Position numbers and translations under genes: made by a program
Shown: one piece after another, positions 1,678-61,743 of the stretch
Position numbering within the stretch: position 1 is the stretch's first letter
How the letters are laid out: each line of letters starts with the position of its first letter
Notes under the pieces: model-generated
Databases searched by the model: none
What the model saw: the letters and a program-made list of their open reading frames with translations, nothing else
Told to the model about the DNA's origin: nothing
Assembly: GCA_964410585.1 (NCBI GenBank)
Contig: CAYPFW010000001.1
Coordinates: forward strand, 447,814-511,813
Direction: 5' to 3'
DNA: 64,000 nucleotides
Source: an uncultured archaeon
GTDB taxonomy: Archaea > Aenigmatarchaeota > Aenigmatarchaeia > QMZP01 > JACQNV01

Positions 1678-1904
1678 TAGCCTTTCTTTTCAAAAAGATC
1701 AGCATCTCACTATGTGATGATGCTGAGATGTCGTGTGCTTGCACATCGTAATTGGAAGCTGGTTTCAGAGACCAGCTTCGGTATCCGCCTGTGAGCACAT
1801 CTTGAGTGAGACAAGCTCACTCAATCTCGTGCCCTGTTAACCGCTATATGGTTAATTGGAGACACGAAAGCGGTAAGGTATCGGAAAGAAAACGGTATAC
1901 ACCT
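1678..1904 (+). repeat. Long-form X repeat with a nested W hairpin
   Basis: TAGCCTTTCTTTT...CATCTCA/TGAGATG hairpin...TTAATTGGAGACACGAAAG...GGTAAGGTATCGGAAAGAAAAC. The W module TTGGAAGCTGG-loop-CCAGCTTCGG sits at 1752-1786. Confidence 0.8.
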
Positions 1905-1957
1905 AACCCCTTTAGAAAAAGAAGGTGTAAGCTATCCCAAGAAAACTAATTTACAAG
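1905..1957 (+). repeat. Short-form S repeat
   Basis: CCCCTTTAGAAAAAGAAGG hairpin followed by the box GTAAGCTATCCCAAGAAAACTAATTTACAA. Same family as 11767, 30833, 35954 and 55451. Confidence 0.7.
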
Positions 1958-1984
1958 TCTAAAAAACATAACCAATTTCTATTT

Positions 1985-2263
1985 TTAAAGTCTTCCATAT
2001 TTTTTATGAGCCTGCTCAGCTGTTAAGAATTCTGTAACCTTCACAACTTTATTTTCGATATCAATAACATAGAAAAATCTATAATCCCCAACCCTTAATC
2101 TATAAGCAGATCTCCGCGTTCCTTTTATTTCCTTTTTATCGCCATCTGGACTAGGAAAGGGATTTTCGAGAGATTTTAATTTTTCTTTAAATCTCGCAGA
2201 TTCCTTTGTTGGGAAGCTATTTATTTTACTCAAAACTTCTGTCTCAACGAGAACCTGGAACAT
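1985..2263 (-). CDS. RelE/ParE-family type II toxin
   Basis: 92 aa with the YRLRVGDYRFFY core typical of RelE/ParE. It lies immediately downstream of a small partner ORF. Confidence 0.8.
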   Translation of the reverse strand: MFQVLVETEVLSKINSFPTKESARFKEKLKSLENPFPSPDGDKKEIKGTRRSAYRLRVGDYRFFYVIDIENKVVKVTEFLTAEQAHKKYGRL

Positions 2264-2449
2264 TTACAACTCCACAAACTTGCCCTTTTTAGCTATTTCA
2301 TTTTGAGTTTCTACAAAAAAGTCTATCCTTGCTATCCTTTCATGCTCCTGTATAAGTTTATTTATTAGACTATCGTAAGTGTCATTCATACTTCCTATAC
2401 TTTTTAACTTTTGCTGGGTTTCCCTTTCAACTTGTATTGTTGTTTTCAT
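2264..2449 (-). CDS. Putative antitoxin of the RelE/ParE module
   Basis: Small ORF abutting the toxin start. Start moved to the internal ATG (MKTTIQVERETQQKL...), confirmed as cat at 2447-2449. Confidence 0.55.
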   Translation of the reverse strand: MKTTIQVERETQQKLKSIGSMNDTYDSLINKLIQEHERIARIDFFVETQNEIAKKGKFVEL

Positions 2450-2545
2450 AATATATAATAAGATATAGTTATATATAAAGATTATCAATTAGCAATAAAA
2501 ACAGAAAAACTGGAGTAATTTAAAACCTCTTTCTATTTTATAACT

Positions 2546-3043
2546 ATGCTAACCTACGAAACAATACGAAAAATACTAGATGAAGAAAAAGCCTCGCCAA
2601 ATTTGGCCAAAATCCCAGCTGATTTTTTCAAACAGGCGAAAGAATATTTGGAGAAAAAAGCACAGGTTTCAAAGGATTGGGAATTTGAATCAACAGAGAG
2701 GAGGCTCAAAGACATAATCGACTTGAGGGAAAAGAAGGTTATAATGTTTGCAATGTATGCTGTCAGAGCAAACACAGATGTCCAAAACTTGACAGAAGAA
2801 GAAATGGAACTCTTTAATACTGTTTTGAATGGTATCAAACTTTTCAGAGAAGGCATAGATAAGCAAATGTCAGCAAAAAAAGGAGAGCCTGTTGTTATTT
2901 TAAATGATGTTGGCGAGTTTGTTGGAATAAATATGGCTGTTTACGGCCCATTCAAATCCGGTGATATTGTTACCCTACCCAAACCAAACGCAGAATTAAT
3001 TGTGAAAAAAGGCTACGGCAAGAGGCTGAATATACCTGCTTAA
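2546..3043 (+). CDS. GINS-like replication protein (Gins51/Gins15 type)
   Basis: 165 aa helical N-terminal domain (LAKIPADFFKQAKEYL, REKKV) plus a small beta C-terminal domain. Adjacency to primase is common in archaea. No search was run. Confidence 0.5.
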   Translation: MLTYETIRKILDEEKASPNLAKIPADFFKQAKEYLEKKAQVSKDWEFESTERRLKDIIDLREKKVIMFAMYAVRANTDVQNLTEEEMELFNTVLNGIKLFREGIDKQMSAKKGEPVVILNDVGEFVGINMAVYGPFKSGDIVTLPKPNAELIVKKGYGKRLNIPA

Positions 3044-3112
3044 ATGTATATAAATACTCTAGATACAATCATATGAATCTGACAGCTTTCTTTTAGAAGC
3101 GATAGGGTAATT

Positions 3113-3400
3113 ATGAAATTTCCAAAAGAGATTAGGATCTATTGTCCAAAGTGTAAAAAACATACAGAACACAAAGTGAAGCAAGAAAAGAAAAGAGCAA
3201 GAAGTTCAAAGCATCCAGATTCATCATCGCAGAGGCGTTTTCAGCGAAAAATGAAAGGTTACCACGGTTTCCCAAGACCACAACCAAGTGGCGAAGGCAA
3301 ACCAACAAAAAAAGTTGATTTGAGATACAAATGCTCTGTATGCGGGAAATCACAAATAAGAGGCATGGGATTTAGGGTTAAAAAATTAGAACTTACATAA
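3113..3400 (+). CDS. rpl44e: 50S ribosomal protein L44e (eL42)
   Basis: [13 protein letters not shown] ... YKCSVCGK zinc-ribbon pattern in a basic 95-aa protein. Confidence 0.9.
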
Positions 3401-3402
3401 TT

Positions 3403-3570
3403 ATGGCATCTGGATTTTTCAAAGTAAAATGTGAGAAGTGTAAGAACGAGCAGACTGTTTTCGAGAAGGTCTCGACAAAAGTTGAGTGTTTAGTTTGTGG
3501 AGAAATTTTAGCAGAACCAACAGGCGGAAGGACAAATTTTAAAGTGACAGAACTTACAGCTGTTAAGTAA
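3403..3570 (+). CDS. rps27e: 30S ribosomal protein S27e (eS27)
   Basis: 55-aa ORF missed by the track: MASGFFKVKCEKCKNEQTVFEKVSTKVECLVCGEILAEPTGGRTNFKVTELTAVK. It has a C-x2-C...C-x2-C ribbon, and the L44e-S27e order is conserved. Confidence 0.85.
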   Translation: MASGFFKVKCEKCKNEQTVFEKVSTKVECLVCGEILAEPTGGRTNFKVTELTAVK

Positions 3571-5195: not shown

Positions 5196-5270
5196 GGTTA
5201 ATCGTGGAAGGCGTTTAAAAATTTTTCGAAGCGAACTGAGAAAAATTTTAGCCTCCTGTTTTGATTAACC
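5196..5270 (+). repeat. Y repeat
   Basis: Outer stem GGTTAATC/GATTAACC encloses GTGGAAGGCG, an AT-rich hairpin and AGCCTCCTGTTTTG. Confidence 0.8.
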
Positions 5271-5287
5271 TTTTGGGACAAAAGGTT
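5267..5287 (+). promoter_or_regulatory. Z hairpin ending at the aIF2-alpha start codon
   Basis: AACCTTTT-GGGAC-AAAAGGTT is followed directly by ATG at 5288. The 3' arm contains the AAGG(T) SD-like bases. Confidence 0.5.
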
Positions 5288-11766: not shown

Positions 11767-11825
11767 CTATCCTTTTCTTTTAGAAAAAGAAAAGTATACC
11801 GTACCCCAAAGAAAACTAAATACAT
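11767..11825 (+). repeat. Short-form S repeat abutting the pus10 start
   Basis: CCTTTTCTTTTAGAAAAAGAAAAG hairpin plus TATACCGTACCCCAAAGAAAACTAAATACAT, then ATG at 11826. Confidence 0.75.
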
Positions 11826-13404: not shown

Positions 13405-13408
13405 ATGC

Positions 13409-13504
13409 AAAAATCGGAGGCTCGTAAGAGTTGGAAGCTGATCTCAATAAGCTTCGGTATCTGACACTCGTCGTTGAGACTCCTCGTTCGATTGCGCCTT
13501 CCAT
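13409..13504 (-). repeat. Y repeat (reverse) with a nested W hairpin
   Basis: CGGAGGCTC ... GCGCCTTCCAT termini. The AT-rich hairpin is replaced by TTGGAAGCTG-loop-AGCTTCGGTATC (13431-13461). Confidence 0.65.
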
Positions 13505-13589: not shown

Positions 13590-13641
13590 AGGTTTTGGGT
13601 AAAATAGCCTTTTGATGAAGGCGGAAGCCTCGAAAAGGCTA
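13590..13641 (-). repeat. Short S/X-type repeat (reverse)
   Basis: GGTTTTGGGTAAAATAGCCTTTTGATGAAGGCGGAAGCCTCGAAAAGGCTAT. Compare 40194-40321. Confidence 0.6.
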
Positions 13642-13643
13642 TT

Positions 13644-14050: not shown

Positions 14051-14135
14051 AGTGGAAGGCGTAATCAAGTGGAAGCCGTTTAAAAAAATTGCGAATCGCA
14101 ATGAGCAATTTTTTAGGCTCCTGTTTTGATTAACC
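14051..14135 (+). repeat. Y repeat
   Basis: GTGGAAGGCG...GTGGAAGCCG, an AT-rich hairpin (AAAAAATTGC/GCAATTTTTT) and AGGCTCCTGTTTTGATTAACC. Confidence 0.8.
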
Positions 14136-14200
14136 TTCGTGTCTCGCAGAGTGCGTAGGACACGAGACATCTCTGCACCAATATAATTGGAGATGCAGAT
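14136..14200 (-). repeat. X repeat core (reverse)
   Basis: CGTGTCTCG...CACGAGACATCTCTGCA...TGCAGA is the reverse complement of the GAGATGTCTCGTG core. Confidence 0.75.
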
Positions 14201-14215: not shown

Positions 14216-14803
14216 ATGGAACAGCATGAAATAAAGAAAGATGAATGGGGAATAGTGTTGGAGTTCCTTCCAAAAGGACATATTGGTATGCAAAGATCTC
14301 AACCAGTTGCACAAGTCCTTGGGGACAAATACTTTTCTTTACTTGAAGTTATAATCAGGGAAGGCGCGACAGCCGCAGCAGAAGAAAGGCTATACATAGG
14401 AGATAAAAAGAGAGACAAAGTCAAATACATACAAGGCAGGATAGAAATGTCAGGCCTTACATCAGGATCAAAAGATGAGCTTTCAAAAGCAATAGAGACT
14501 GTTGTTGAAAAAAGCCCAGAACAGTTCATAAAGTTTTTCAATGAGTGCGGACCCCTTACAACAAGGATGCACCAACTTGAACTACTTCCAGGAATTGGAA
14601 AAAAACATTTGTGGAAAGTTTTAGAGGAAAGGAAAGTTGAGCCTTTCAAGTCTTTTGACGATATCAAAAACAGGGTCCCAATGATCCCAGACCCTAAAAA
14701 GATGATTGTGAAAAGGGTGGAAGCAGAATTAGAGGGAAAGGATAGGTATTATTTGTTTGCTTTGAAACCCAAGGAAGCTTTGAGGGAAGAGTTCAGGCGC
14801 TAG
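14216..14803 (+). CDS. DUF655-family protein (HhH-containing, conserved archaeal partner of Rpo4)
   Basis: VLEFLPKGH...SLLEV...RMHQLELLPGIGKKHLWKVLEER...PFKSFDDIKNRV pattern. Confidence 0.75.
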   Translation: MEQHEIKKDEWGIVLEFLPKGHIGMQRSQPVAQVLGDKYFSLLEVIIREGATAAAEERLYIGDKKRDKVKYIQGRIEMSGLTSGSKDELSKAIETVVEKSPEQFIKFFNECGPLTTRMHQLELLPGIGKKHLWKVLEERKVEPFKSFDDIKNRVPMIPDPKKMIVKRVEAELEGKDRYYLFALKPKEALREEFRR

Positions 14804-14937
14804 CCTTTCTTTTTCAAAAAAAGATCAACATCTCACCGATGCAAAGGATGATGAGATGTCTCGTGAACAATTAACTGTTCACGCAGTTAATAGGAGACAC
14901 GAAAGTCTACCGTACCCAAAGAAAAACGATATACAAA
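14801..14937 (+). repeat. Long-form X repeat (best reference copy)
   Basis: TAGCCTTTC (the TAG is the stop of the upstream gene), CATCTCA-N16-TGAGATG, GTCTCGTG, hairpin GTGAACA-ATTAAC-TGTTCAC, TAATAGGAGACACGAAAG, TCTACCGTACCCAAAGAAAAAC. Confidence 0.85.
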
Positions 14938-30832: not shown

Positions 30833-30888
30833 CTAGCCTTCTTTTAGAAAAAGAAGTCTACCGTACCCAAGAAAACTATTATACATAC
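30833..30888 (+). repeat. Short-form S repeat
   Basis: CTAGCCTTCTTTTAGAAAAAGAAG plus TCTACCGTACCCAAGAAAACTATTATACATA. It starts 1 nt from the start codon of the 630-aa gene. Confidence 0.75.
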
Positions 30889-32783: not shown

Positions 32784-32922
32784 TAGGGCTATCCTTTTCT
32801 TTAGAAAAGTCTGCATCTCCTAAGAAATGGATGCAGAGATGTCTCGTGAACAACGAGCAAAGAAAAAGGTTAATAGGAGACACGAAAAAGTCTACAGTAT
32901 CCAAAAGAAAACTATTATACAA
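32784..32922 (+). repeat. Long-form X repeat
   Basis: TAGGGCTATCCTTTTC, CTGCATC/GATGCAG hairpin, GAGATGTCTCGTG (32836-32848), TAATAGGAGACACGAAAAAG, TCTACAGTATCCAAAAGAAAACTATTATACAA. Confidence 0.85.
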
Positions 32923-34051: not shown

Positions 34052-34128
34052 GCCTTTTTCAAAATCTACATCTCCAACAATATTGGTGCAGAGATGTCTC
34101 GTGCACATTGCAATAGGAGACACGAAGG
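34051..34128 (+). repeat. X repeat
   Basis: GCCTTTTTC, CATCTCC...GGTGCAGAGATGTCTCGTG (34091-34103), CAATAGGAGACACGAAGG. Confidence 0.8.
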
Positions 34129-34135: not shown

Positions 34136-34195
34136 CAAAAAGGAGGCTAAATTTTTCTTCATTTGCGGATTCGCAAAAAATTTCACGCCTTCCAC
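34136..34195 (-). repeat. Y repeat (reverse)
   Basis: AAAAAGGAGGCT, AT-rich hairpin, CGCCTTCCAC. Confidence 0.8.
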
Positions 34196-34204
34196 ATTGA
34201 AGTT

Positions 34205-35953: not shown

Positions 35954-36013
35954 CTACCCCTTTTCTTTAGAAAAGAAAAGTGGTAAGGTATCCCAAAAGA
36001 AACTAATATACAA
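35954..36013 (+). repeat. Short-form S repeat abutting the abce1 start codon
   Basis: CTACCCCTTTTCTTTAGAAAAGAAAAG plus TGGTAAGGTATCCCAAAAGAAACTAATATACAA. On the minus strand it reads AAAGGGGTAG-ATG. Confidence 0.8.
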
Positions 36014-36997: not shown

Positions 36998-37060
36998 CTT
37001 AAGCAAAACAGGAGGCTATTTTTTGCTTCGCTGCTGCTTGCAAAAAATTACGCCTTCCAG
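36998..37060 (-). repeat. Y repeat (reverse)
   Basis: CAAAACAGGAGGCT, hairpin TTTTTTGC/GCAAAAAA, CGCCTTCCAG. Confidence 0.8.
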
Positions 37061-37074
37061 CCTAAACTTTTGAT

Positions 37075-37095
37075 CGACCTTTTCCCAAAAGGTCG
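37075..37095. repeat. Z hairpin
   Basis: CGACCTTTT-CCC-AAAAGGTCG. Confidence 0.7.
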
Positions 37096-37170
37096 GGTTA
37101 ATCAAAAACGGAGCCTAAAATTTTCTTCATCTGCGGATTTGAAAATTTTTACGGCTTCCACGATTAACCC
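37095..37170 (-). repeat. Y repeat (reverse)
   Basis: Outer stem GGGTTAATC/GATTAACCC enclosing CGGAGCCT, an AT-rich hairpin and CGGCTTCCAC. Confidence 0.8.
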
Positions 37171-38084: not shown

Positions 38085-38152
38085 GTCGTGTCTCGTTCCA
38101 ATATCAAAAGACACGAGACATCTCAGCATCTTTCGCATTGGTGAGATGCTGA
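38085..38152 (-). repeat. X repeat core (reverse)
   Basis: GTCGTGTCTCG...CACGAGACATCTC (38112-38124)...GGTGAGATGCTGA. Confidence 0.8.
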
Positions 38153-38217
38153 CTTAAGCAAAAATAGGAGCCTAAATTTTTGCTCATTGTGATTCGCAAA
38201 AATTTTACGGCTTCCAC
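38153..38217 (-). repeat. Y repeat (reverse)
   Basis: AAAATAGGAGCCT, hairpin AAATTTTTGC/GCAAAAATTT, CGGCTTCCAC. Confidence 0.8.
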
Positions 38218-38245
38218 TTTTAAAACCTAGAACTAAAAACAAAAG

Positions 38246-39933: not shown

Positions 39934-40193
39934 AGACTTCTAACTCTCCTTTTTAGTTTTATAGAAATATCTTACTAAGCCACAAGGCTCATATCGATTA
40001 TAGCGTAGAGAATATCTGCGCGCAAAAGCCAGAAGTTCTGGCATAGAACAAGTCTTACCAAAATTTCCAACTTTAGTTTCTATTAACTATATCAAAATAG
40101 TAACCAAGGGCTTATAAAGGTTATTCCTCTCTGTGCCCACAAAACAAGATTTCTGTAATTGTGCTCACAAAAATCAGAAAAATACTTTAACCA

Positions 40194-40321
40194 GGTTTTG
40201 GGTACGGTAGCCTTTTGACAAAGGCGGAAGTCGCGTCTCCAATTAGCTGAGTGTTCAGTTAGTTGTTCGCGAGACGTCTCTGCGTCAATTTAGCAGGAGA
40301 CGCAGACCTTGAAAAGGCTAG
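40194..40321 (-). repeat. Long-form X repeat (reverse), starting 2 nt after the peroxiredoxin stop
   Basis: GGTTTTGGGTACGGTAGCC...GCGTCTCCAATTA...CGCGAGACGTCTCTGCGTC...GACGCAGA...GAAAAGGCTAG. Confidence 0.8.
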
Positions 40322-40323
40322 CT

Positions 40324-43970: not shown

Positions 43971-43985
43971 TTTCACTTAAGAGAC
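43971..43985 (+). repeat. Linker remnant C6
   Basis: TTTCACTTAAGAGAC shares TTTCACTTAA with C1. Confidence 0.45.
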
Positions 43986-44093: not shown

Positions 44094-44420
44094 TTAGCCA
44101 TATCCAAATCTTCTCTCATAATTTTTGTGATCAAACCACTCAAGTAAGATAGCCATTATTTTAATTTCGTCTTTTGCTATTGTGTATATTAGTCTCCAAG
44201 CGTTTGGCAAATCATATTTCCACAAATTGTCTATTTTGTATTTCTTGATGTATTCTTTCGGCCACAAATCTTGAGGAATCTTTATTCCACAATTTGGATT
44301 CTTTTTCAAATCATCGGTTGCTCTTTCAAGAAATTTGTAAAGCTGAGGATCTTCAGATTCTGCCTTTTCGTACTCCTCCTTTGTTTTCTCATCTATAAAA
44401 CCAACAAACACATTTGTCAT
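44094..44420 (-). CDS. RelE/YoeB-like type II toxin
   Basis: 108 aa with ...NLWKYDLPNAWRLIYTI...ILLEWFDHKNYERRFGY. 4-nt overlap with the upstream small ORF. Confidence 0.6.
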   Translation of the reverse strand: MTNVFVGFIDEKTKEEYEKAESEDPQLYKFLERATDDLKKNPNCGIKIPQDLWPKEYIKKYKIDNLWKYDLPNAWRLIYTIAKDEIKIMAILLEWFDHKNYERRFGYG

Positions 44421-44680
44421 TTTAATATCAATCCTTTTTGTGTCACTTTCCTAATTAGTTCTGGGTTCCATATCCATACTATCTTTTCATCTTTGCCTAT
44501 CGTAATTTTTCCCAGTTCTTCCAGATAATCAATTATCATGGAAAATGTTTGGTACATAACTTGCTTGGGGAGCGCTTTCCACAACTCTGTTTTCGTTGGG
44601 TAAAAACCCAAATTTTTTATAGTGTCCTCTACCATCAATACCGTGTCCAGTCTTGGATAGTGCAAAATATTTTGGCTCAT
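44417..44680 (-). CDS. Small DNA-binding/antitoxin-like protein (paralog of 23176-23439)
   Basis: MSQNILHYPRLDTVLMVEDTIKN.... It sits upstream of and overlaps the toxin. The palindromic promoter copy is at 44689-44707. Confidence 0.6.
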   Translation of the reverse strand: MSQNILHYPRLDTVLMVEDTIKNLGFYPTKTELWKALPKQVMYQTFSMIIDYLEELGKITIGKDEKIVWIWNPELIRKVTQKGLILK

Positions 44681-44711
44681 GTAATTATATAAGTTTATAT
44701 AACTTATAAAG

Positions 44712-46085: not shown

Positions 46086-46430
46086 TCAGTTAGCATAGTC
46101 TTCTTGAGAAAGAACAACGCTCAATTTTATTGGTCCGTCTTCTATTGGTTTTAGCCTCATTTTCAGAATTTCGTTGAAAAAGAAGCTAAGAGAATTCGAA
46201 ATAAGTTGTGGGAAAGCCCCTGATTTGTTGGAGAGCTCTTTTTCCAAATATTCTTGCAAATCGCTTTCTGTTATTTCTTCCAACGGTTTGTCTATCTTAA
46301 AAACAAACTTTTTAATGTTGAAAAGATGTGTTGCTATTGTTTCTTCTGGCAGATTCTTGAGCCTCATTTCCCTGTATGCAACAAATATTGGGTCAATATC
46401 CATTTCCATAATACTCCTCCTATTCATCAC
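46086..46430 (-). CDS. Stand-alone integrase N-terminal SAM-like (core-binding) domain protein
   Basis: Helical pattern ...EETIATHLFNIKKFVFKI...ITESDLQEYLEK...SLSFFFNEIL without any catalytic domain. Confidence 0.5.
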   Translation of the reverse strand: MMNRRSIMEMDIDPIFVAYREMRLKNLPEETIATHLFNIKKFVFKIDKPLEEITESDLQEYLEKELSNKSGAFPQLISNSLSFFFNEILKMRLKPIEDGPIKLSVVLSQEDYAN

Positions 46431-46758
46431 TCATTGCAATCTCCCTGAAAAGGAGATGTATAGCGTCTCTTGCAATTTTTTTATTTGATTGTATTTGGTT
46501 TAGGTAATCGTTAAGGTCTTCCTCGCAGGCTGCTGATGGGTCCTTTTCCAAAAAGTTTAGGAACCCGTATATGTGGAACCAGTAGTCTTTTATTTCCTCT
46601 TTTGAGAGGCTTCTTCTCTCCATTTCTAGAGAAAGTTTAAACTCTAATGTCCTTGGATAAAAATCCAAAGCTGTGGAAAATTCTAAGAAGGCTCCTTGGA
46701 CAATTTGTTTTTCCAATTCATCGGCCTTTGGAGGGCAAGATTGTAACATAATGATCAC
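46420..46758 (-). CDS. Second stand-alone integrase SAM-like domain protein
   Basis: ...YWFHIYGFLNFLEKDPSAACEEDLNDYLNQI...IHLLFREI. An S-repeat box lies directly upstream. Confidence 0.45.
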   Translation of the reverse strand: MIIMLQSCPPKADELEKQIVQGAFLEFSTALDFYPRTLEFKLSLEMERRSLSKEEIKDYWFHIYGFLNFLEKDPSAACEEDLNDYLNQIQSNKKIARDAIHLLFREIAMSDE

Positions 46759-46761
46759 TTA

Positions 46762-46856
46762 AATTGTAATTTAGTTTTCTTTTGGGATACCTTACCACTT
46801 CTCTAGTTGTAAACTTTTGATCAACCTTTTCTTAAAAGGTTGAGAAAGGGGAAGTT
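46762..46856 (-). repeat. S repeat (reverse) with a Z hairpin nested in its loop
   Basis: TTTAGTTTTCTTTTGGGATACCTTACCACTTCTC ... TCAACCTTTT-CTT-AAAAGGTTGA (46821-46843) ... GAGAAAGGGGAAG. Confidence 0.7.
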
Positions 46857-46969
46857 GGAGGGGTATCCTTCGGGGGCAATCCGAAGGTTGCTGACATGTA
46901 TTTCAGTCAGCTCTCCACAATAAGACGTTCTTTTGGACAGTATATAAGGCAAACCCAAGGGTAGCTTTC

Positions 46970-47100
46970 CGCAATTCCAATTTCGGTGTTATATTGGCTA
47001 TGTATATCGATTTTCGAGATTCCAATAAATTCCACAAAGAAACAGTGTTATTTATTTTTATGCTTCAATAAAATAGATGAGGAAAGATTTGGTCAAAATT
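46970..47100. other. Candidate replication-origin features (ORB-like TTCCA boxes plus an AT-rich tract)
   Basis: AATTCCAATTTCGG, GATTCCAATAAATTCCACAAAGAAAC, then TGTTATTTATTTTTATGCTTCAATAAAATAG. A further AGTTCCAATTTTGA lies at 48640-48655 on the other side of cdc6. Confidence 0.25.
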
Positions 47101-47172
47101 TATAGAGAGGATAGGAGACGATTAGCTAGACAAATTTATGCGGAATTTTTATCTTGAGACTCTCGCGGAGTT

Positions 47173-47511
47173 TTGGATTTGGTTAGATCAAAGGGATATG
47201 AGGTAGATGGTCTTCAAATTAGAGGCGATATACAAGTTGATTTTTATGCAACAAAACCAGTAGGACAGAGAAAAATTTATGTTGCTGCACCTGTTTTAGA
47301 TGATAAGGGACACAAACTTTTGATAAGAGGTGAGGCATATGGCAACCCATTATTTGATTTGCATAGGGGAGTTCATCTTGTTTTGCATCCACCTCGCCAG
47401 GAGGAATCTGATCTTGATCAGCTTTTTGAGGCAGTATCTCAACAATTTCCACCGCTACTGTTACTTAAGTTGTTTTATAGGGATGTAAATAAAAGAAGAG
47501 AAGCCTTATAG
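47173..47511 (+). CDS. Hypothetical protein (TTG start, weak)
   Basis: 112-aa ORF with no ATG start and no recognisable motif. Confidence 0.3.
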   Translation: MDLVRSKGYEVDGLQIRGDIQVDFYATKPVGQRKIYVAAPVLDDKGHKLLIRGEAYGNPLFDLHRGVHLVLHPPRQEESDLDQLFEAVSQQFPPLLLLKLFYRDVNKRREAL

Positions 47512-47579
47512 AACCAAGGAATAGCAGACGGTTTGGATGTTGTAGAGGAACTTATTTTAGAAAACGATAGCATGCTAAG

Positions 47580-48599
47580 TTAAATAGTATAAATCCTTCC
47601 CCTACCATCTCCAACAAGTTTGATCAGCTTATAGTGTTCCAATTTATCTAAATAATTCCTTGCTGTCCTGTCAACTATTTTTTCCAGTTTATTTTTTTCA
47701 CATAACTCTTCAAATTTTTTGTAGAAGTCTTGAGGCGCTATTTTTCCTGAAGCACAAATAATTTCATACATTAGTTTTTGATGCTTGTTTAGAGAGGATA
47801 TTAGATCATTTCTTCCAACGATTTTGGCCTTGTGTATGAATTTATCTACAAAATCAACTGGGATTTTTTTTAAATCTTTTCTCTCTGCCTCTTCTGCAAC
47901 TATTCTTAAAGTATCTATAGCAAACCTCGAATCTCCCTCTGAAACAGAGGCTATTTTTTCAATCAATTCTTGGGAAGCCGCGTGTGGGAGGAGACCATAT
48001 TCTGCTCTGGTTTTTAGTATGTCTATTATCTCATACTCTTTGTAGTGCGGAAATTCTATGTAGTTTATTGAGGCTAACCTACTCCTTATTCTTTCCTCGA
48101 AACCAAAGAGCGCTGTCTCTTTATTTGAAATGAAAATTAAACAAGCACCCAGTGAAAGAAATTCATAGATAATTCTGTCAGATTCTATCTGGTCCACCTC
48201 ATCTAAAATTATCACACAATTCTTGCCTTTTATTTTTGCTTTAACTTTTTCCAAAAGCTCGTCTGTTGGTATGCCTTTCCTGTGGATGAATGTTTGACCA
48301 AATTCATGAAGAATATTGTAAAGTATTTGGAAATCAGAAGGTGTTGTCCAACAGTTTATGTAAGAAGATGTTACAGGAATGTGAGATTTCAGTTCCTCAA
48401 TAATAAATTTTGAGAGGCAGGTTTTTCCTGTTCCAGGTGGCCCGTACAAGAAAACATTCCTTGCCTGCTTCCCATTTACTATTGGAGAAAGGTCGTCGCG
48501 TATAGTGGATATTTGAGAATCTCTATGAATAATTTTTGATGGAATGAATTGCTCTGTTAGAACGCGAAGATCTCGGATGATTGTATTATCTGTATACAT
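47580..48599 (-). CDS. cdc6: Orc1/Cdc6 replication initiator
   Basis: AAA+ fold (LYGPPGTGKT, VIILDEVD), an initiator-specific region and a C-terminal winged helix. Confidence 0.9.
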   Translation of the reverse strand: MYTDNTIIRDLRVLTEQFIPSKIIHRDSQISTIRDDLSPIVNGKQARNVFLYGPPGTGKTCLSKFIIEELKSHIPVTSSYINCWTTPSDFQILYNILHEFGQTFIHRKGIPTDELLEKVKAKIKGKNCVIILDEVDQIESDRIIYEFLSLGACLIFISNKETALFGFEERIRSRLASINYIEFPHYKEYEIIDILKTRAEYGLLPHAASQELIEKIASVSEGDSRFAIDTLRIVAEEAERKDLKKIPVDFVDKFIHKAKIVGRNDLISSLNKHQKLMYEIICASGKIAPQDFYKKFEELCEKNKLEKIVDRTARNYLDKLEHYKLIKLVGDGRGRIYTI

Positions 48600-50043: not shown

Positions 50044-50805
50044 ATGGATACACGAGCTCTGGAAGATCTGGGTTTGACAAAGGGCGAAATCAAAGTTTAT
50101 TTGGCTCTAATTGGTCTAGGAGAAACAACATCTGGACCTTTAGTAGAAGAGTCTGGAGTATCTGTTTCCAAGGTTTACCAAATTCTAAATCGCCTTGCAA
50201 AGAAAGGTTTGGTTAGCCACATTGTAAAAGGAAAAACAAAATACTTCAAAGCAGCTGACCCAAATAGGCTTTTAGATTATTTGTCTGAAAGGGAGGATAA
50301 ACTGAAAGAGGAAAAAGAAGAGCTGAAAAAATTCATTCCTTTATTGGAAACAAAACAAAAATCTTTGCTGACTGCTGAAACTGCACAAGTTTTTGAAGGC
50401 CTTCGTGGCATACAAACCGCTAGAGAGAGGACGCTAAAAATAATGAAGCCCGGGAATGAAATGTGGCTTGTTGGAATTGCTAAAACACCTTATGAAAAGC
50501 TAACACCATATTTCAGGGAATATCATAAAAGGAGGTATGGGAAAGGAATAAAATGCAAATATCTTTACAACGAATATTCAAAAAAGCCCTATGGCGAAGT
50601 TTCAGCAACATATCCTCTGAGCGAAGTTAGATATATGCCAAAAGATGTTGTCACACATTCTTGGATGGAAATATATGCAGACACAGTGACAATTGGTTTG
50701 CACCACAAAAAATCTTTTTCTGTTGTTATTCAAAATCAGGATGTAGCAGACTCGTTCAGAGAATATGCAAAACTTTTATGGAGAATATCAAAACCACATA
50801 AATGA
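50044..50805 (+). CDS. TrmB-family transcriptional regulator (paralog of 18310-19065)
   Basis: LEDLGLTKGEIKVYLALIGLGETTSGPLVEESGVSVSKVYQILNRLAKKGLV. Confidence 0.8.
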   Translation: MDTRALEDLGLTKGEIKVYLALIGLGETTSGPLVEESGVSVSKVYQILNRLAKKGLVSHIVKGKTKYFKAADPNRLLDYLSEREDKLKEEKEELKKFIPLLETKQKSLLTAETAQVFEGLRGIQTARERTLKIMKPGNEMWLVGIAKTPYEKLTPYFREYHKRRYGKGIKCKYLYNEYSKKPYGEVSATYPLSEVRYMPKDVVTHSWMEIYADTVTIGLHHKKSFSVVIQNQDVADSFREYAKLLWRISKPHK

Positions 50806-50807
50806 TT

Positions 50808-50862
50808 TGTAAACTAGTTCTTTTGGGATACCTTACCACTTTTCTTTCTAAGAAAAGGGGGA
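50808..50862 (-). repeat. Short-form S repeat (reverse)
   Basis: TGTAAACTAGTTCTTTTGGGATACCTTACCA plus CTTTTCTTTCTAAGAAAAGGGGG. Confidence 0.75.
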
Positions 50863-50923: not shown

Positions 50924-51664
50924 ATGTTATATTTAATTTCTCTTGGACTTGCAGATGAAAAGGATATGAGCATAAAAGGTCTTGAAACTGCAAAGAAATG
51001 TGACGCTCTTTATGTTGAATTCTATACAAATAGGCTTGAGACTAATTTGGAAAAATTGGAAAGTTTGATTGGAAAAAAAGTTGCTCAGCTCAATAGAGAG
51101 GATTTGGAAGAGAAATCAAAAAAGATTTTGAAAGAAGCTAAAACAGCTGATGTCGGGGTTTTTGTTGGCGGAGATGCATTGGCTGCGACAACACATATCT
51201 CCTTGGTTTTAGATGCAAAAAAAGAAGGAGTTCCTGTTAAAGTGATACATAGCTCTTCTATTTTCACAGGAGTTGCTGAAACTGGACTTCAGCTATACAA
51301 GTTTGGTGCGACAACTACATTGGCTTTCCCACAAGATGGATATCACCCAACATCCTGCTATGATGTTATTGTGAAGAATAAAAAAACAGGCTTACATACA
51401 CTGGTTTTGTTGGATATAAGAGAGAGATTGATGAGTGTGAAAGATGGTCTTAACACGCTTTTGGATTTGGAAAAATTAAAACAGGAAAAAATTATTTCAG
51501 CTGAAACAAAACTAATTGCTGCCTCAAACCTGGGATCTGAAAAACAAAAAATAAAATACGGGAAAGTCAAAGACTTGATGAAAGAAGAATTTGGGATGCC
51601 TGCTGTCATTGTTTTTCCTGGAGATTTGCACTTCATGGAAGAAGAGTTCTTGTCTCTTCTGTGA
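50924..51664 (+). CDS. dphB: Diphthine synthase
   Basis: MLYLISLGLADEKDMSIKGLE...LYVEFYTN and the tetrapyrrole-methylase fold pattern. Confidence 0.9.
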   Translation: MLYLISLGLADEKDMSIKGLETAKKCDALYVEFYTNRLETNLEKLESLIGKKVAQLNREDLEEKSKKILKEAKTADVGVFVGGDALAATTHISLVLDAKKEGVPVKVIHSSSIFTGVAETGLQLYKFGATTTLAFPQDGYHPTSCYDVIVKNKKTGLHTLVLLDIRERLMSVKDGLNTLLDLEKLKQEKIISAETKLIAASNLGSEKQKIKYGKVKDLMKEEFGMPAVIVFPGDLHFMEEEFLSLL

Positions 51665-51715
51665 AGAAGAGCAAGAGACATCTCAGCACTCACCTCATAG
51701 TGAGATGCTGATCTT
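51664..51715 (-). repeat. Partial X repeat (hairpin-1 module only, reverse)
   Basis: AAGAGACATCTCAGCA...TAGTGAGATGCTGATC. Confidence 0.6.
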
Positions 51716-52373: not shown

Positions 52374-52392
52374 TAGGAATTCAATGGGTTTG

Positions 52393-52407
52393 TATAACAG
52401 TGTTATA
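52393..52407. promoter_or_regulatory. Palindromic operator candidate 1 of 3
   Basis: TATAACAGTGTTATA. Confidence 0.55.
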
Positions 52408-52429
52408 TTTACTTGCTTTCCTGATTTAC

Positions 52430-52443
52430 ATAACACTGTTATA
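52430..52443. promoter_or_regulatory. Palindromic operator candidate 2 of 3
   Basis: ATAACACTGTTATA. Confidence 0.55.
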
Positions 52444-52499
52444 TCAACACACAGAAGGCTCGTGAAAACATGTTTAAATTTCCATATTTCAGCCTCATA

Positions 52500-52514
52500 T
52501 ATAACACTGTTATA
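52500..52514. promoter_or_regulatory. Palindromic operator candidate 3 of 3
   Basis: TATAACACTGTTATA, about 50 nt upstream of the ATG at 52566. Confidence 0.55.
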
Positions 52515-52565
52515 TCGAGGCAAAGCTTTATAAGTAACTAAAGTAACTACTACATAGTGATTGTT

Positions 52566-53327
52566 ATGGGTGGTCAAAAAATAACTCAGTTTCTAAGGGA
52601 AGGTCCAAGACCTGAAGAATTAGGTGCATACGCAACCAACGCAATAAGATCAACACCTTTAGCTCGAAGAGCAACAGAGCTTTATGAAACAGTTGATCCT
52701 ACAAACCTTACTCCAGAAAGATTAGCAAGAACAGGACAAACACTTGTAGAAAAAGCATACAGATCGGCCCTAGACAAGGTTTTTGGAAAACCAAGAAAAG
52801 CAAGCAGACCCGAAAATGCTGTTAGAAAATATGTTCTAAAAGTTTTAGCAGGCGACAATTTAGGGGCACAAGTAAACGAGGTCTCAGCTGACTGGTTAAG
52901 CAACTTAGAATATGTTGACATAAACATAGGAAAAAGAGGAAGATCGCCTTTAGGATTCAATGAAAATGTTAATGGAAGAAATATAGTCTACATCCCAAGA
53001 GTTGGAGAAAATGTAGGCTTAGTTGTTTCTCGCGGAATACAAGATTACATAAAAATACACGAGCTCATGGAAACAACAGAAGCAAAACCAAAAGGAGAAA
53101 GAGAACATGAAAAAATGGACGCAGCAATACTTTCTGTTTTAAAAGAATTCAGCACAACAAGCGAAAGAGCAAGACAAGCATACAGAGGCGCTCTTTCAGT
53201 CTATGAAGCAAGGGGAGAAAATGACCCATACTTCAGAGGAGTTTCAAAATTCTATCCAGTTAGAGAAGAGATACGTTCAAATGTCTTTAGTTTAAACAAT
53301 AAAGGAGAGTTTGCTTTCGCGGCTTAG
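52566..53327 (+). CDS. Hypothetical protein
   Basis: 253 aa from the ATG at 52566 (the track start at 52557 is a GTG). No motif recognised. Confidence 0.55.
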   Translation: MGGQKITQFLREGPRPEELGAYATNAIRSTPLARRATELYETVDPTNLTPERLARTGQTLVEKAYRSALDKVFGKPRKASRPENAVRKYVLKVLAGDNLGAQVNEVSADWLSNLEYVDINIGKRGRSPLGFNENVNGRNIVYIPRVGENVGLVVSRGIQDYIKIHELMETTEAKPKGEREHEKMDAAILSVLKEFSTTSERARQAYRGALSVYEARGENDPYFRGVSKFYPVREEIRSNVFSLNNKGEFAFAA

Positions 53328-53336: not shown

Positions 53337-54500
53337 ATGCCATCAATAACAGAAATGGATTTGTTTGAAGAAGATTTGGAAAATTTAGACATAGATCCAT
53401 CAGGATTGGAAGCTGGCGAGACCAGCTTCGGCCCTCGAGGGGGAACAGGAAATTTTAGACACACTGATTTATCTCCTAGATACAGATTCGGCGGAGCAAA
53501 TCCAGCACCAGCAGGCCAACAACAAGGTGTCTTCAAAAGATGGAGAGAATACAGAAAACAAATAAGAGAAAAACAACCTTTGGTTAGATGGGGAAAACTT
53601 TTTGGCTTGTGGAAACCATTGGCATATAGAGGTGTTTCACAAGTACTTGAAAAAATTTCAGTCCCAGCAGAACAAAGAGGAAACTTTTTTGTCGATCTTT
53701 ATGGTGGTATAGTTGATGGATATAAAACAAGTTTTAAAAAACAAGCTGACATTAAACCAGCTGACATAGTGCCTGGTTTAAGAAGAGAATTAGAATTTGC
53801 AGGAGGCTCAACTAAAATAGAAAAAGTTTACTTCTACAGATACAATGGCCAAGATGTGCCAATATTTTTCAGCACAGGTGACAATCCATCAGAACAACAA
53901 TTACGAGAAGGCATAGCTCATGTCCAGCAAATCAAACAAGCAGGAAGAAAAAGATATAGGGAATCAAAATACAACAAAATGGACAAAGCTGTAGCAGATT
54001 CATTTTTAGATGGAGATTTCATCACATGGGCAGCTGATAAATTTACTCGCGGTGACTATAAGAGATATTTTGAACAAGAACCTGGAAAAGCGCACAGATG
54101 GTTTGTCAAACTTGATACAGCATGGATACACCAATACGGTGATCAAGACGCAGTAGCAGAGGCTGCTTTGCCAAATGATTTGAAGCCAACTGTTTTTGTA
54201 AGAAAAGTTCCAGAAAATCAACACGGTGTAAACAGCTTTTGGAACTATGTAGGAAAACTAGTTGGAAAAGAAAAACCATTTAGTTGGGGAAGATATGCTT
54301 ACTGGAAAGCAGGTGACATAATCGTGGATTTGGTAGACTTAGCTTTTGGAGACCATGTACTTGAATCTGCAGAAGCCCTAAAATTCCCAGCAGATAGTAT
54401 AAGGGACTTGTCTTATTCATTCCTTAAAATAGGTTCTGATGCAATGAGAGGTTTTTTCAATCCAAGAACTCCATATCTTGCATACGAACAAGTTTTATGA
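53337..54500 (+). CDS. Hypothetical protein with an in-frame W-repeat copy near the N-terminus
   Basis: 387 aa. Nucleotides 53406-53431 (TTGGAAGCTGG-CGAG-ACCAGCTTCGG) encode LEAGETSFG. Confidence 0.6.
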   Translation: MPSITEMDLFEEDLENLDIDPSGLEAGETSFGPRGGTGNFRHTDLSPRYRFGGANPAPAGQQQGVFKRWREYRKQIREKQPLVRWGKLFGLWKPLAYRGVSQVLEKISVPAEQRGNFFVDLYGGIVDGYKTSFKKQADIKPADIVPGLRRELEFAGGSTKIEKVYFYRYNGQDVPIFFSTGDNPSEQQLREGIAHVQQIKQAGRKRYRESKYNKMDKAVADSFLDGDFITWAADKFTRGDYKRYFEQEPGKAHRWFVKLDTAWIHQYGDQDAVAEAALPNDLKPTVFVRKVPENQHGVNSFWNYVGKLVGKEKPFSWGRYAYWKAGDIIVDLVDLAFGDHVLESAEALKFPADSIRDLSYSFLKIGSDAMRGFFNPRTPYLAYEQVL

Positions 54501-54584: not shown

Positions 54585-54648
54585 GTGGAAGCCGCGAATT
54601 TTTCGAGCTAGCAAGCGAAGGAAAAATTAGGCTCCTGTTTTGGTTAAG
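54585..54648 (+). repeat. Y repeat
   Basis: GTGGAAGCCGCG, AT-rich hairpin, AGGCTCCTGTTTTGGTTAAG. Confidence 0.8.
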
Positions 54649-54743
54649 TCAGCATCTCACTGTGAGGTGGATGCTGAGATGTCTCGTGCACAGTTAACTG
54701 CTTATGCGGATAATTGGAGACACGACTTTTGGGACAAAAGGTT
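54645..54743 (+). repeat. X repeat ending in a Z-like hairpin at a start codon
   Basis: CAGCATCTCA...TGCTGAGATGTCTCGTG (54676-54688)...TAATTGGAGACACGA, then CTTTTGGGACAAAAGGTT-ATG. Confidence 0.85.
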
Positions 54744-55450: not shown

Positions 55451-55506
55451 TACCCCTTTCTTTAGAAAAGAAAGTGGTAAGGTATCCCAAAGAAACTAAT
55501 ATACAA
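55451..55506 (+). repeat. Short-form S repeat
   Basis: CTACCCCTTTCTTTAGAAAAGAAAG plus TGGTAAGGTATCCCAAAGAAACTAATATACAA. Confidence 0.8.
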
Positions 55507-60092: not shown

Positions 60093-60094
60093 GA

Positions 60095-60586
60095 TTAACA
60101 CAACAATCTAATCCAAATTTTCATGCTTGGAGTAAACTGCTCGGGATTTGAGTTTATTTTTTGCTTCAATTCTTTTTTAGAAAACCACTTCACTTGAGCC
60201 ACTTCTTCGTTTTGTATTTTAAACTCATTTATTTGTCTATCAATTTTTAGAGTATACATCTGGCAGAAAAAATTGTGTTTTCCGAAAATCCTTTTCTTTG
60301 GGCCTTTAGAAGGTTTTATGCTTTTCAAGCCAATTTCTTCTTCAGCCTCTTTGACTATATTTTGTTTGTATGTTTCGCCCCTTTCCACAGTTCCAGCAAC
60401 AGCAGGCGACCATTTTCCAGGCTCGTTTTTCTTGGTTAATGCTCTCTGAGCCAAGAGTATTTGGTTTTTAGAATTTGTTATCCATAAGGCAGAGACGCGG
60501 TAGATGTCTTTTGGTTTTATTTCATCCAAACCTTTATAGCCGATTATTTGGTCTCTTTGGTTTACAATAGTAAAAAGGGATTTCAT
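60095..60586 (-). CDS. NUDIX hydrolase
   Basis: Nudix box GTVERGETYKQNIVKEAEEEIGL. Confidence 0.8.
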   Translation of the reverse strand: MKSLFTIVNQRDQIIGYKGLDEIKPKDIYRVSALWITNSKNQILLAQRALTKKNEPGKWSPAVAGTVERGETYKQNIVKEAEEEIGLKSIKPSKGPKKRIFGKHNFFCQMYTLKIDRQINEFKIQNEEVAQVKWFSKKELKQKINSNPEQFTPSMKIWIRLLC

Positions 60587-60649
60587 AACATGATCAATAC
60601 GTCCTCACGCAATCCACGAATATATAAGTCCCTAGATCTTATATAAAAT

Positions 60650-60784
60650 ATGGAAACAGTGACAATATCAAAACAGGAATACGAACACTTAAAACAGCAA
60701 GCACAGATAGATGTAGAGTTATTGCAACAATTAATATCTAGTTTTACTGATATAAAAGAGGGGAGAGTTAGAAGAGTTAAGTAG
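60650..60784 (+). CDS. Small antitoxin-like ORF (44 aa)
   Basis: Not in the track: METVTISKQEYEHLKQQAQIDVELLQQLISSFTDIKEGRVRRVK. The DIKEGRV ending is typical of RelB/Phd-class antitoxins. Confidence 0.35.
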   Translation: METVTISKQEYEHLKQQAQIDVELLQQLISSFTDIKEGRVRRVK

Positions 60785-60785
60785 A

Positions 60786-61100
60786 CTATCGTACTAAATT
60801 CTCGATTTCATTTTTGTAAAAATCCAGCATCATTTTGATGCCATTGATTACTCTTTGTTGATCCTTCTTTTCGCTTATACCAACCATGTAAACAGATTTT
60901 AGGTTTTCATAGATTAGATAATAAACTCTGAATTTATCGTGCTTCTTTTCTCTAAGCCATTTAACTCCTAGAGGATCACCAACATAAGGAAATTCAACAA
61001 GTTGATCTTCAATTTTATCGAGCCATCTATGGAACTCATTATCGAATTCCTTTAGCTTATCATCGAATGTTTTAGAATGAAATATTTTATAATCTCCCAT
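60786..61100 (-). CDS. RelE/ParE-family toxin-like protein
   Basis: 104 aa with the KFRVYYLIYE core. Confidence 0.6.
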   Translation of the reverse strand: MGDYKIFHSKTFDDKLKEFDNEFHRWLDKIEDQLVEFPYVGDPLGVKWLREKKHDKFRVYYLIYENLKSVYMVGISEKKDQQRVINGIKMMLDFYKNEIENLVR

Positions 61101-61133
61101 ATATTCTATTTATCATACTCTTAAAAATACAAG

Positions 61134-61511
61134 CTATCTTCTTTTTTGGCTTATCATTTCCTCGACCTGTTCCCTTGTTACGAATTTTGATTTGAGTGGA
61201 TTGTAAATGTCCAAAAGTTCTTTTATCCCAGTGACCTCTGATTTTGTTGCAAATCTTTTCAGTTGATTTATCAATTCATTTACTGTGTTTTCGAGCTGCC
61301 CAAACTTGGAAAGAAAATCATTCATTCTAGAATCAATTGACTGCTCAAGCCTTGAGATATCCTTTTTTTGGTTTAAGATTTCATTTTCCAAAGATGTTGT
61401 TGTGTTGACTGTTTCATTGTATCTCTCTTCCAAATCCCTCAACCTTCTTGTAACATCATTGACTCTGCTTGTCAATTCGTTTATAACCCTAAACATCTCT
61501 TGGTCTGGCAT
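61134..61511 (-). CDS. Coiled-coil protein
   Basis: 125 aa with heptad-like repeats throughout. The C-terminal half resembles the coiled-coil part of 58719-59573 in composition. Confidence 0.5.
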   Translation of the reverse strand: MPDQEMFRVINELTSRVNDVTRRLRDLEERYNETVNTTTSLENEILNQKKDISRLEQSIDSRMNDFLSKFGQLENTVNELINQLKRFATKSEVTGIKELLDIYNPLKSKFVTREQVEEMISQKRR

Positions 61512-61683
61512 ATCTACCTATATTTGGTTGAGCGTTCCTTTAAATTAAGATTTTAGCCGAAAATCAATTAACCATTAAATACTGCTTCAATCAATATTAC
61601 ATATATAGGGGATTACGCTACAAGAGAGCGTTCAGAGTTACCAAAAAGAGGGGTGAATTTTTCTTTTAGTGGAATGAGTGGTT

Positions 61684-61743
61684 TTGTATCCTAGTTTTCT
61701 TTGGGGTACCTTACCACTTTCTTTTTCTAAAAGAAAGGGGTAG
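61684..61743 (-). repeat. Short-form S repeat (reverse) abutting the ATPase start codon
   Basis: TTGTATCCTAGTTTTCTTTGGGGTACCTTACCA plus CTTTCTTTTTCTAAAAGAAAGGGGTAG, then ATG at 61744. Confidence 0.8.

Follow-up and report, generated by a model that had tools for sequence, protein, structure and literature searches.

The stretch of DNA considered here, referred to below as the window, is a 64-kb segment from an uncultured archaeon of the Aenigmatarchaeota (contig CAYPFW010000001.1, positions 447,814 to 511,813). Its G+C content is approximately 36%, and its genes are archaeal housekeeping genes, including those for a fused PriS/PriL primase, GINS, L44e, eIF2-alpha, SRP54, Pus10, L21e, Rpo4, DUF655, ABCE1 and Orc1/Cdc6, among others; the nearest named homologues of the DUF655 protein belong to Candidatus Aenigmarchaeota. 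The intergenic DNA is populated by short hairpin-forming repeats of five types, here called modules X, Y, S, Z and W. A preliminary description, made from the sequence alone, had reported these repeats as a dense load resembling REP/BIME elements or miniature transposable elements with inverted repeats (MITEs) and matching no known family. Both parts of that description are supported. The repeats lie where they had been placed (nine X, eight Y and about 14 S, plus Z and W) and occur far above chance. Rfam covariance models gave no match on the window at the gathering score, and at E<=1 the sole match was a chance one to RsmY inside a coding region.

The signature of X is the 13-mer GAGATGTCTCGTG, which is perfect at all six positions first reported (14853, 32836, 34091 and 54676 on the forward strand, 14161 and 38112 on the reverse strand). 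Four further copies carry one or two mismatches, giving 10 matches against 0.77 expected, a number reached in none of 100 shuffles. A covariance model built from X copies and run on the window recovers nine copies with E-values of 1e-20 to 2.5e-6, the same nine that were known previously; eight score 58-77 bits and a swollen copy (match 1689-1824) scores 28 bits. Copies of the repeats are 61-92% identical to one another. Pattern scans yielded seven canonical copies of Y and one variant (13408-13504), about 14 S modules by their hairpin/box pattern, three strict Z palindromes with the other Z copies being variants, and three W hairpins, the shuffle expectation being 0-0.7 for each pattern. The window as a whole contains about 40 module pieces across about 22 intergenic gaps, or approximately 140 per Mb for X alone and 600 per Mb for all modules. 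Their intergenic location, as first described, holds broadly and fails for one copy of W, which lies inside an open reading frame (ORF; Table 1).

The anatomy of X was obtained from an alignment of 31 copies and then from inspection of 115 unique copies. X is 61-78 nt in length and comprises two hairpins, HP1 and HP2, joined by the linker GATGTC, in the layout TC-[HP1: nnnCATC..loop..GATGnnn]-GA, GATGTC, TC-[HP2: GTG-nnn..loop..nnn-CAC]-GA, the termini being the hairpin feet. The preliminary description was therefore correct as to the nine places of X and wrong as to its makeup, since the true element (TC...CACGA) had been lumped with the flanking S hairpin and S box. Its two ends are imperfectly inverted relative to each other, TCTGCATCTCC versus TCGTGTCTCC, with each end forming part of its own hairpin. 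When X is folded as single-stranded DNA, z ranges from -2.0 to -5.3 and the stems include the first and the last base. Compensatory substitutions, proposed earlier as a check on the stems, are found in both X and Y. In HP1 one pair is UA 21 times, AU 9 times and GC once, the next is GC 20 times, UA 6 times and AU once, and the covariation score was reached by no shuffle. The inner pairs of HP2 covary as well (TC/GA, AAC/GTT, TGC/GCA, CC/GG), and its conserved foot has compensatory variants TCGCG/CGCGA (40231-40306), TCTTG/CAAGA (51648-51711) and TCATG/CATGA (locus L104). An HP2 register in which GTCTC pairs with GAGAC fits the sequence but is not borne out, because covariation in the variants favours TCGTG-nnn/nnn-CACGA. 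Mismatches in the HP1 stem, read on the defined strand, are G.T in 25 cases versus A.C in 12, an excess that weakly favours folding of one particular strand and is suggestive only.

Some parts of X, namely GAGATGTCTC and the CATCTC/GATG motifs, are nearly invariant, more so than pairing requires. Such invariance is what double-stranded protein-binding sites would show, with the palindrome GAGA-TG-TCTC as their core and a nucleoid protein, a XerA-type recombinase or a transcription factor as their ligand, and a XerA/integron-type recombinase is indeed encoded at 44712-45599. We nevertheless consider a binding-site origin very improbable, as the compensatory covariation of the stems points to intramolecular pairing and not to sequence readout, the modules are dispensable at orthologous sites, and nesting within the core, as described below, would wreck a site. 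Identification of X as a C/D-box sRNA was also rejected, the ATGATGA of one copy not being kept in others.

Y forms a bulged GGAAGSC/GS'CTCC helix with an AT-rich stem and a CGAR...YGAR loop, and compensatory changes are seen in eight of 16 stem pairs. The module is followed by T4-5, and six of the eight copies are sense to a neighbouring gene. S consists of a CTAGCC-TTTCTTT/AAAGAAA hairpin, then TACCGTACCCAAAGAAAAC, then a TATA-like stretch. Two readings of these modules were rejected: Y as an integron attC site, because its closing helix GGTTAATC...GATTAACC is in the reverse order of R''(RYYYAAC)...R'(GTTRRRY) and its flanks are housekeeping genes, and the S box purely as an ordinary promoter, because it can lie anywhere from 0 to 50 nt from the ATG and is seen in either orientation. 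All nine X copies of the window lie inside another module, four at a Y/Z tail and five in S1 or S2, the host of X8 being reduced to a short S-like flank (CTATCC). The individual copies are listed in Table 1.

Table 1. Copies of the X, Y, S and W modules in the window (the module copy Y1 is distinct from the Y1 transposases discussed in the text; CM, covariance model score).
Module	Coordinates	Strand	Description
X1	1699..1867	+	swollen to 169 nt by extra hairpins (TCGTG..CACG mini-hairpin, W at 1752-1783, one more) that lie after GAGATG and before the final HP2; CM 28 bits, E 2.5e-6
X2	14137..14199	-	63 nt, after GATTAACCT in Y2 tail; CM 77 bits; two-hairpin fold z -5.3; site empty in loci L045 and L144
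X3	14825..14902	+	long-HP2 variant nested in S1 between DUF655 and CBS genes; CM 59.6 bits
X4	32810..32885	+	in 3' arm of S1 hairpin (AGAAAAG^AAAAGT); CM 65 bits
X5	34065..34125	+	splits GCCTTTTTCAAAA/..AGGC hairpin beside Y4; CM 66 bits
X6	38086..38152	-	adjoins Y7; CM 75 bits
X7	40231..40306	-	in S2 hairpin loop; CM 57.6 bits; coordinated changes CGTC/GACG and TCGCG/CGCGA; empty paralogous site 13590-13643
X8	51648..51711	-	HP2 stem TCGTG/CACGA changed to TCTTG/CAAGA; CM 57.8 bits; fold z -4.5
X9	54649..54725	+	between Y3 (..GGTTAAG) and Z (CTTTTGGGACAAAAGGTT), just 5' of ATG 54744; CM 59 bits; empty paralogous site 5260
Y1	5196..5270	+	GGTTAATC-GTGGAAGGCG-AT-rich hairpin-AGCCTCC-TGTTTT-GATTAACC; then Z 5268-5286, ATG 5288
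Y2	14051..14136	+	partial duplicate of its own 5' end; absent in L045 and L144
Y3	54585..54648	+	pattern scan, pairing analysis
Y4	34136..34200	-	pattern scan, pairing analysis
Y5	36998..37062	-	then Z-like hairpin AAGCTTTTAGGATAAAAGCTT before ATG 36977(-)
Y6	37095..37170	-	closed by GGGTTAATC/GATTAACCC; fold z -4.7
Y7	38153..38223	-	pattern scan, pairing analysis
Y8	13408..13504	-	variant with inserted W (13431-13457); same gap 58 nt in L045
S1 x2	1678..1957	+	1678-1902 carries X1; second copy 1903-1957
S1	11767..11825	+	hairpin and TACCGTACCCCAAAGAAAAC box; abuts Pus10 ATG
S1	14801..14936	+	carries X3; first bases overlap TAG stop of DUF655 gene
S1	30833..30885	+	hairpin end abuts ATG of minus-strand gene 28939-30831
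S1	32789..32922	+	carries X4
S1	35954..36012	+	hairpin end abuts ABCE1 ATG (minus strand)
S1	55451..55506	+	pattern scan and fold
S1 box, decayed hairpin	46762..46803	-	Z at 46824-46840
S1	50806..50862	-	begins right after stop of ORF 50044-50805
S1	61684..61743	-	hairpin end abuts ATG 61744
S2	13590..13643	-	TAGCCTTTT..AAAAGGCTA hairpin and ACCCAAAACC box; fold z -5.1
S2	40193..40323	-	carries X7
W hairpin GGAAGCTGGCGAGACCAGCTTCGG	53408-53431		inside 387-aa ORF 53337-54500, which has no Pfam match

Comparison with related contigs shows gain and loss of modules at orthologous sites. The gene order L21e-Rpo4-DUF655-CBS is kept in locus L045, whose DUF655 protein is 88% identical, and the three gaps between these genes measure 58, 63 and 2 nt there versus 260, 242 and 154 nt in the window. 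Shared promoter and Shine-Dalgarno sequences can be recognised in both, and the extra DNA of the window is exactly the modules. A second relative (L144, 92% identical) spans just the two gaps that flank DUF655, which are 63 and 1 nt, and in a third contig (carrying P0004, 88% identical) the gaps taken from gene coordinates are 71, 73 and 1 nt; the counterpart of the 154-nt gap that bears X3 is thus 2 nt long in L045 and 1 nt long in L144. Differences in the opposite direction are found in L127, which is 72-86% identical over window positions 30977-35953 and carries Z with Y, and X with S, Y and a nested X, at two sites that are empty in the window (26 and 33 nt). At the site of X4 this locus has X on the same strand and S inverted, and its Y-X composite of the X5/Y4 type lies on the other side of the gene relative to the window. 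Likewise, L037 carries S with an X-in-X nest between eIF2-alpha and SRP54, where the gap of the window is 38 nt. Copies come and go between close relatives, and because relatives lack modules at the same orthologous intergenic sites, a comparison that had been suggested at the outset, the modules behave as small mobile DNA elements.

The insertions themselves are exact. Three pairs of empty and filled sites, together with the nests of X within X, define an inserted unit TC...CACGA with no duplicated bases. These sites include GATTAACCT^TTTGGGAC, empty at window position 5260 and occupied by X in L098; gtagg^tttcgc, which L141 has empty and both L023 and L056 have filled; and GAGATG^TCTCGTG, the point at which a second X is inserted in L013, L037 and L126. 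Target-site duplication, the classical MITE criterion, was found in none of the pairs or nests. An apparent 7-nt duplication at X4 was rejected, the flanking AAAAGTC being parts of the A-rich arm of the S hairpin, which is split here and intact in the copy at 35954. The 5' flanks of X are purine runs (AAAA, AAAG, AAGG, TAGG, GATG) and contain no single fixed word. X inserts precisely, without target duplication and in either orientation, giving nested mosaics. At Rpo4 and DUF655 the insertions separate the ancestral Shine-Dalgarno sequence from the ATG, S2 at 13590..13643 being inserted between the ancestral GGAGGTT and the Rpo4 ATG. In ORF 50924-51664 the last five codons and the stop come from X8, as seen in both sequence and translation.

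To place X in a wider context, its core and HP2 were searched in one representative genome per species. This gave 30 archaeal loci from 12 species-level metagenome-assembled genomes, assigned to Aenigmatarchaeota or to an uncultured archaeon, with G+C contents of 37-57%, and 14 bacterial matches, in high-GC genomes, that arose by chance. The X model recovered every one of these 30 archaeal loci at E<=1e-8, with scores of 51-77 bits for 28 of them, and the HP1 hairpin, absent from the search pattern, is present in 11 of the 12 full copies first inspected. In JGI metagenomes X occurs in 88 stretches, and in viral contigs (IMG/VR) there were no X matches. The census recommended in the preliminary description thus places the motifs beyond the window. 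Exact X cores number eight in the approximately 0.9-Mb genome Ga0082335 versus six in the 64-kb window, and therefore the lineage of the window appears about ten times denser in X, as judged from exact matches only. Hypersaline-type metagenomes (Ga0180431/2; L094, L095, L099, L104, L106, L129 and similar loci) have a different mosaic, consisting of a GTCAACCTTCGGTTGAC hairpin, then X, then a CTGTTCAGCTACGCTGAACAG hairpin, and X therefore partners with other lineage-specific hairpins elsewhere. This distribution also bears on the idea that the repeats are collapsed or chimeric products of assembly. Many related contigs are short, and so the repeats seem to break assemblies; the copies, however, diverge (61-92% identity), sit in unique, syntenic gene contexts and recur in dozens of independent NCBI, ENA and JGI assemblies, and an artefact can be discounted almost entirely.

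Among the testable X copies, 79 of 81 lie outside long ORFs, and no orientation is preferred relative to the genes on either side (++, 18 sense; --, 25 antisense; -+, 20 divergent; +-, 12 convergent). The absence of orientation bias argues against a strand-specific cis-RNA role for X. It also tells against spread through an RNA intermediate, whether by reverse splicing and reverse transcription or by excision of a bulge-helix-bulge intron. Precise, duplication-free insertions, often in single-stranded parts of other hairpins, and stems with more G.U than A.C are what such a route would leave, and yet the 5' TCTGCATC and the 3' GACACGA are complementary neither mutually nor to the variable flanks, there is no bulge-helix-bulge, no reverse transcriptase is encoded in the window, and no Rfam ribozyme or intron matched. 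An archaeal bulge-helix-bulge intron was rejected on inspection, as the boundaries are non-complementary in every copy inspected, and an RNA intermediate of any of these kinds has, in our view, very little probability.

A more serious alternative is that the modules are mainly functional gene punctuation, acting at the level of transcription or RNA, spread by recombination and kept by selection. S would then be a bidirectional terminator by virtue of its hairpin and T-tracts, with a box that serves as a BRE/TATA-like promoter and a 5'-UTR hairpin that sequesters a GGGG Shine-Dalgarno sequence, and Y would be a structured element whose GA-rich apical loop may be a K-turn-like L7Ae site, with a U-tract after it. 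The positions of several copies agree with these roles: the end of the S hairpin abuts a stop (14801, 1678) or a start (30831-, 35953-, 61744+), ..AAAGAAAGGGGTAG immediately precedes the ATG, and three ATGs have the TATA-like part of an S box about 50 nt upstream of them, while for ATG 14958 the distance is 26 nt. In addition, the Y loop retains its CGAR...YGAR sequence with T4-5 after it, most Y copies (six of eight) share the sense of a neighbour, and the S-X arrangement is found again in several genomes. However, relatives at 88-92% identity have the same housekeeping genes without modules, with ordinary TTTATATA boxes and GGAGGT Shine-Dalgarno sequences, and at Rpo4 and DUF655 the insertions have split that sequence from its ATG. 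The variable distance of the S box from the ATG, the presence of both S orientations at one orthologous site and the random orientation of X to transcription likewise count against punctuation as the main role, which we regard as unlikely.

IS200/IS605 is the most widespread family of insertion sequences (IS) in archaea (PMC13343696), and Y1 transposase genes were searched by tblastn with IS200 and IS608 TnpA sequences as queries. L023 and L056 each have a Y1 gene approximately 35 nt downstream of X, and L055 and L086 are similar and suggestive. Those in X-carrying Aenigmatarchaeota contigs match Pfam Y1_Tnp with E-values of 1.5e-23 and 9e-17, and the protein scores 65.8 against the NCBIfam model transpos_IS200 (cutoff 55) and 42 against REP_Tyr_transpos (cutoff 80). 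Altogether 68 proteins of about 142 aa belong to the family, one of them annotated Aenigmarchaeota. The element that encodes it in Aenigmatarchaeota is a compact solo IS200-like element (L134-L143, L023, L056) with a 142-aa Y1 transposase and its own left- and right-end hairpins. Its left end has a conserved TCGCAYGGCGGAAG.. and two hairpins, its right end a hairpin with a covarying stem and then GGAGGATGTCAC, and the same Y1 protein is found in at least three different right-hand contexts; the version in L023 has 33% protein identity, yet about 80% DNA identity at the left end.

The adjacency of X and Y1 genes raised the possibility that X is the cognate terminus of the neighbouring transposase, and this was rejected. 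Ten loci with three Y1 homologues have no X and supply the empty site, and because homologous IS without X do so, X next to Y1 is an insertion into the IS left end; the same applies to a mini-X in L056, and X is on one side of the Y1 gene only. IS200-type Y1 genes, for which the preliminary description had suggested a search, do occur in the same lineages and are candidates for an enzyme acting on X. Remnants of IS200-like ends were sought in the window and none were found.

Several observations weigh against a family of mobile hairpins moved by such an enzyme. The 64-kb window encodes no transposase of any kind, and no X with cargo, which would represent an autonomous parent, was found among the inspected copies. 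The left end (CTACTGGCTTCAGCCAGTAG; GGGGAGCGAAAACTGCCCC) and the right end (hairpin and GGAGGATGTCAC) of the Y1 element are unlike HP1 and HP2, and the link between X and Y1 is one of co-occurrence and mechanistic analogy, not of cognate recognition. The target appears to be a loose purine run, unlike the fixed 4-5-nt target typical of IS200/IS605. Across the putative origin at about 47 kb there is no obvious flip in X orientation, a point of little weight with only nine copies. Finally, the X core is nearly invariant over genomes of 37-57% GC, which a selected cellular function also fits.

No paper describing these repeats was found in the literature searched, and X can be compared with several known systems. 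The REP/BIME elements and the REPIN-RAYT system of Proteobacteria are reportedly treated in the work of Gilson in 1991, Nunvar in 2010, Bertels and Rainey in 2011, and Ton-Hoang in 2012. A Y1 HUH enzyme supplied in trans is presumed to act on REP elements in the form of single-stranded hairpins. Like them, X is a short imperfect palindrome, intergenic and of high copy number, that forms mosaics with other motifs and produces no target duplication. It differs in having no GTAG head, in its TC...GA feet and in comprising two unlike tandem hairpins where REP elements form an inverted doublet. No single-copy RAYT flanked by the repeats was found, and the Y1 protein falls below the REP_Tyr_transpos cutoff as given above; furthermore, the X core is conserved over a whole archaeal group and not just within one species, and X self-nests at a fixed internal point. 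The PATEs of haloarchaea, said to be MITEs derived from IS200/IS605 elements and attributed to Dyall-Smith in 2011, with cyanobacterial MITEs grouped alongside, offer an archaeal parallel. X is likewise a small archaeal element that ends in a hairpin on both sides, appears to have no DDE-type terminal inverted repeats, produces no duplication, and occurs in lineages that have IS200/IS605 elements. In contrast to PATEs, its ends are unrelated to those of the IS200-like element found, its hairpin-foot termini leave no room for a guide or for cleavage-site spacing, and its target appears not to be a fixed tetranucleotide.

The BOX elements of pneumococci, the Correia elements of Neisseria and the ERIC elements of enterobacteria are modular or nested intergenic repeats as well. 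They give their neighbours promoters, terminators and processing hairpins, and they can alter ORF ends. These elements are bacterial and have no sequence similarity to X, and Correia elements, like most MITEs, are bounded by terminal inverted repeats and a duplication of TA or more; X has no such duplication and appears to lack such repeats. In a census of prokaryotic MITEs, DPANN are among the archaea with the highest densities (Altiarchaeum with 146 and a Woesearchaeon with 105 per Mb), and the census demanded terminal inverted repeats and target duplications and does not mention Aenigmatarchaeota (PMC11602168); elements of the X type would therefore be missed. Rolling-circle HUH elements of the Helitron/IS91 type share with X a 5'-TC terminus, a hairpin at the 3' end and precise, duplication-free insertion. 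X is far smaller, however, has neither a CTRR 3' end nor an A^T target, and no Rep/helicase gene was found, so that the resemblance may be taken as a lead only. The traits that set X apart are its hairpin-foot termini, the lack of target duplication, nesting in itself and in other modules, and phylum-wide conservation.

Other features of the window deserve brief mention. The 442-aa ORF at 347-1675 matches the small and large primase subunit domains and is the fused PriS-PriL noted above, a DPANN-type feature. Five or six small ORFs (84-122 aa), unrelated to one another and including a SemiSWEET, form an array at 41233-44737 on the minus strand; its junctions are conserved and structured, and consist of four copies of the 53-nt CGATTGAGCATAATGATCTTATGCTCCCACGATAGTGGTTCGAAC together with repeats of 88 and 61 nt. 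It adjoins the XerA/integron-integrase-type tyrosine recombinase (44712-45599; NCBIfam NF040815, 229.8 versus a cutoff of 220), two truncated N-domain ORFs lie beside the array and recombinase, in a region that includes 46086-46749, and the array may be an integron-like cassette array or a set of tandem integrated elements. A direct repeat of 296 nt with 83% identity (23180-23475 and 44421-44716) covers paralogous small ORFs of 87 and 106 aa and has homologues in L080 and L090. An 830-nt non-coding gap at 46750-47579 lies beside the Orc1/Cdc6 gene (47580-48599, minus strand), the cumulative GC skew is lowest at about 44-48 kb, and the gap is likely a replication origin. The palindrome ATAACACTGTTAT, present three times at 52374-52565 upstream of ORF 52566-53327, and ATAACACCGTTAT at about 23495-23510, upstream of 23667, look like operator sites.

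Taken together, we lean, by a modest degree, towards the view that X, Y, S, Z and W are short, non-autonomous, hairpin-forming mobile modules that colonised the intergenic DNA of Aenigmatarchaeota. The modules would move in the form of folded single-stranded DNA on which an HUH-type enzyme acts in trans, the IS200-type Y1 transposase of these lineages being a possible source. X itself usually lands past a run of purines, either within or next to S, Y/Z, another X or an IS200-like left end. Once inserted, modules would join the gene boundaries, supplying stop codons, T-rich hairpins, TATA-like boxes and Shine-Dalgarno-like purine tracts, and some copies may therefore act as functional punctuation by now. 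A further-reaching proposal, which we put forward only tentatively and with more doubt than confidence, is that X is an archaeal REP-type counterpart with a new mechanism: a phylum-wide hairpin cassette that would enter single-stranded purine runs of folded modules, including itself and an IS200 end, without duplication, that would be moved by a conserved and possibly domesticated host HUH or structure-specific enzyme, and whose mosaics the streamlined DPANN genomes would have taken into use as terminator, promoter and 5'-UTR punctuation.

Although DPANN archaea count as streamlined, some 3-4% of a 64-kb housekeeping stretch is recently inserted hairpin DNA, and the inserted hairpins re-model stop codons, Shine-Dalgarno spacing and promoter-proximal sequence. 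MITE finders based on inverted repeats and target duplications cannot see the X family, which probably breaks up metagenome assemblies of Aenigmatarchaeota and is usable as a lineage marker. Its precise, self-nesting insertion with hairpin-foot termini offers a tractable route to the enzyme that moves archaeal REP-like elements.

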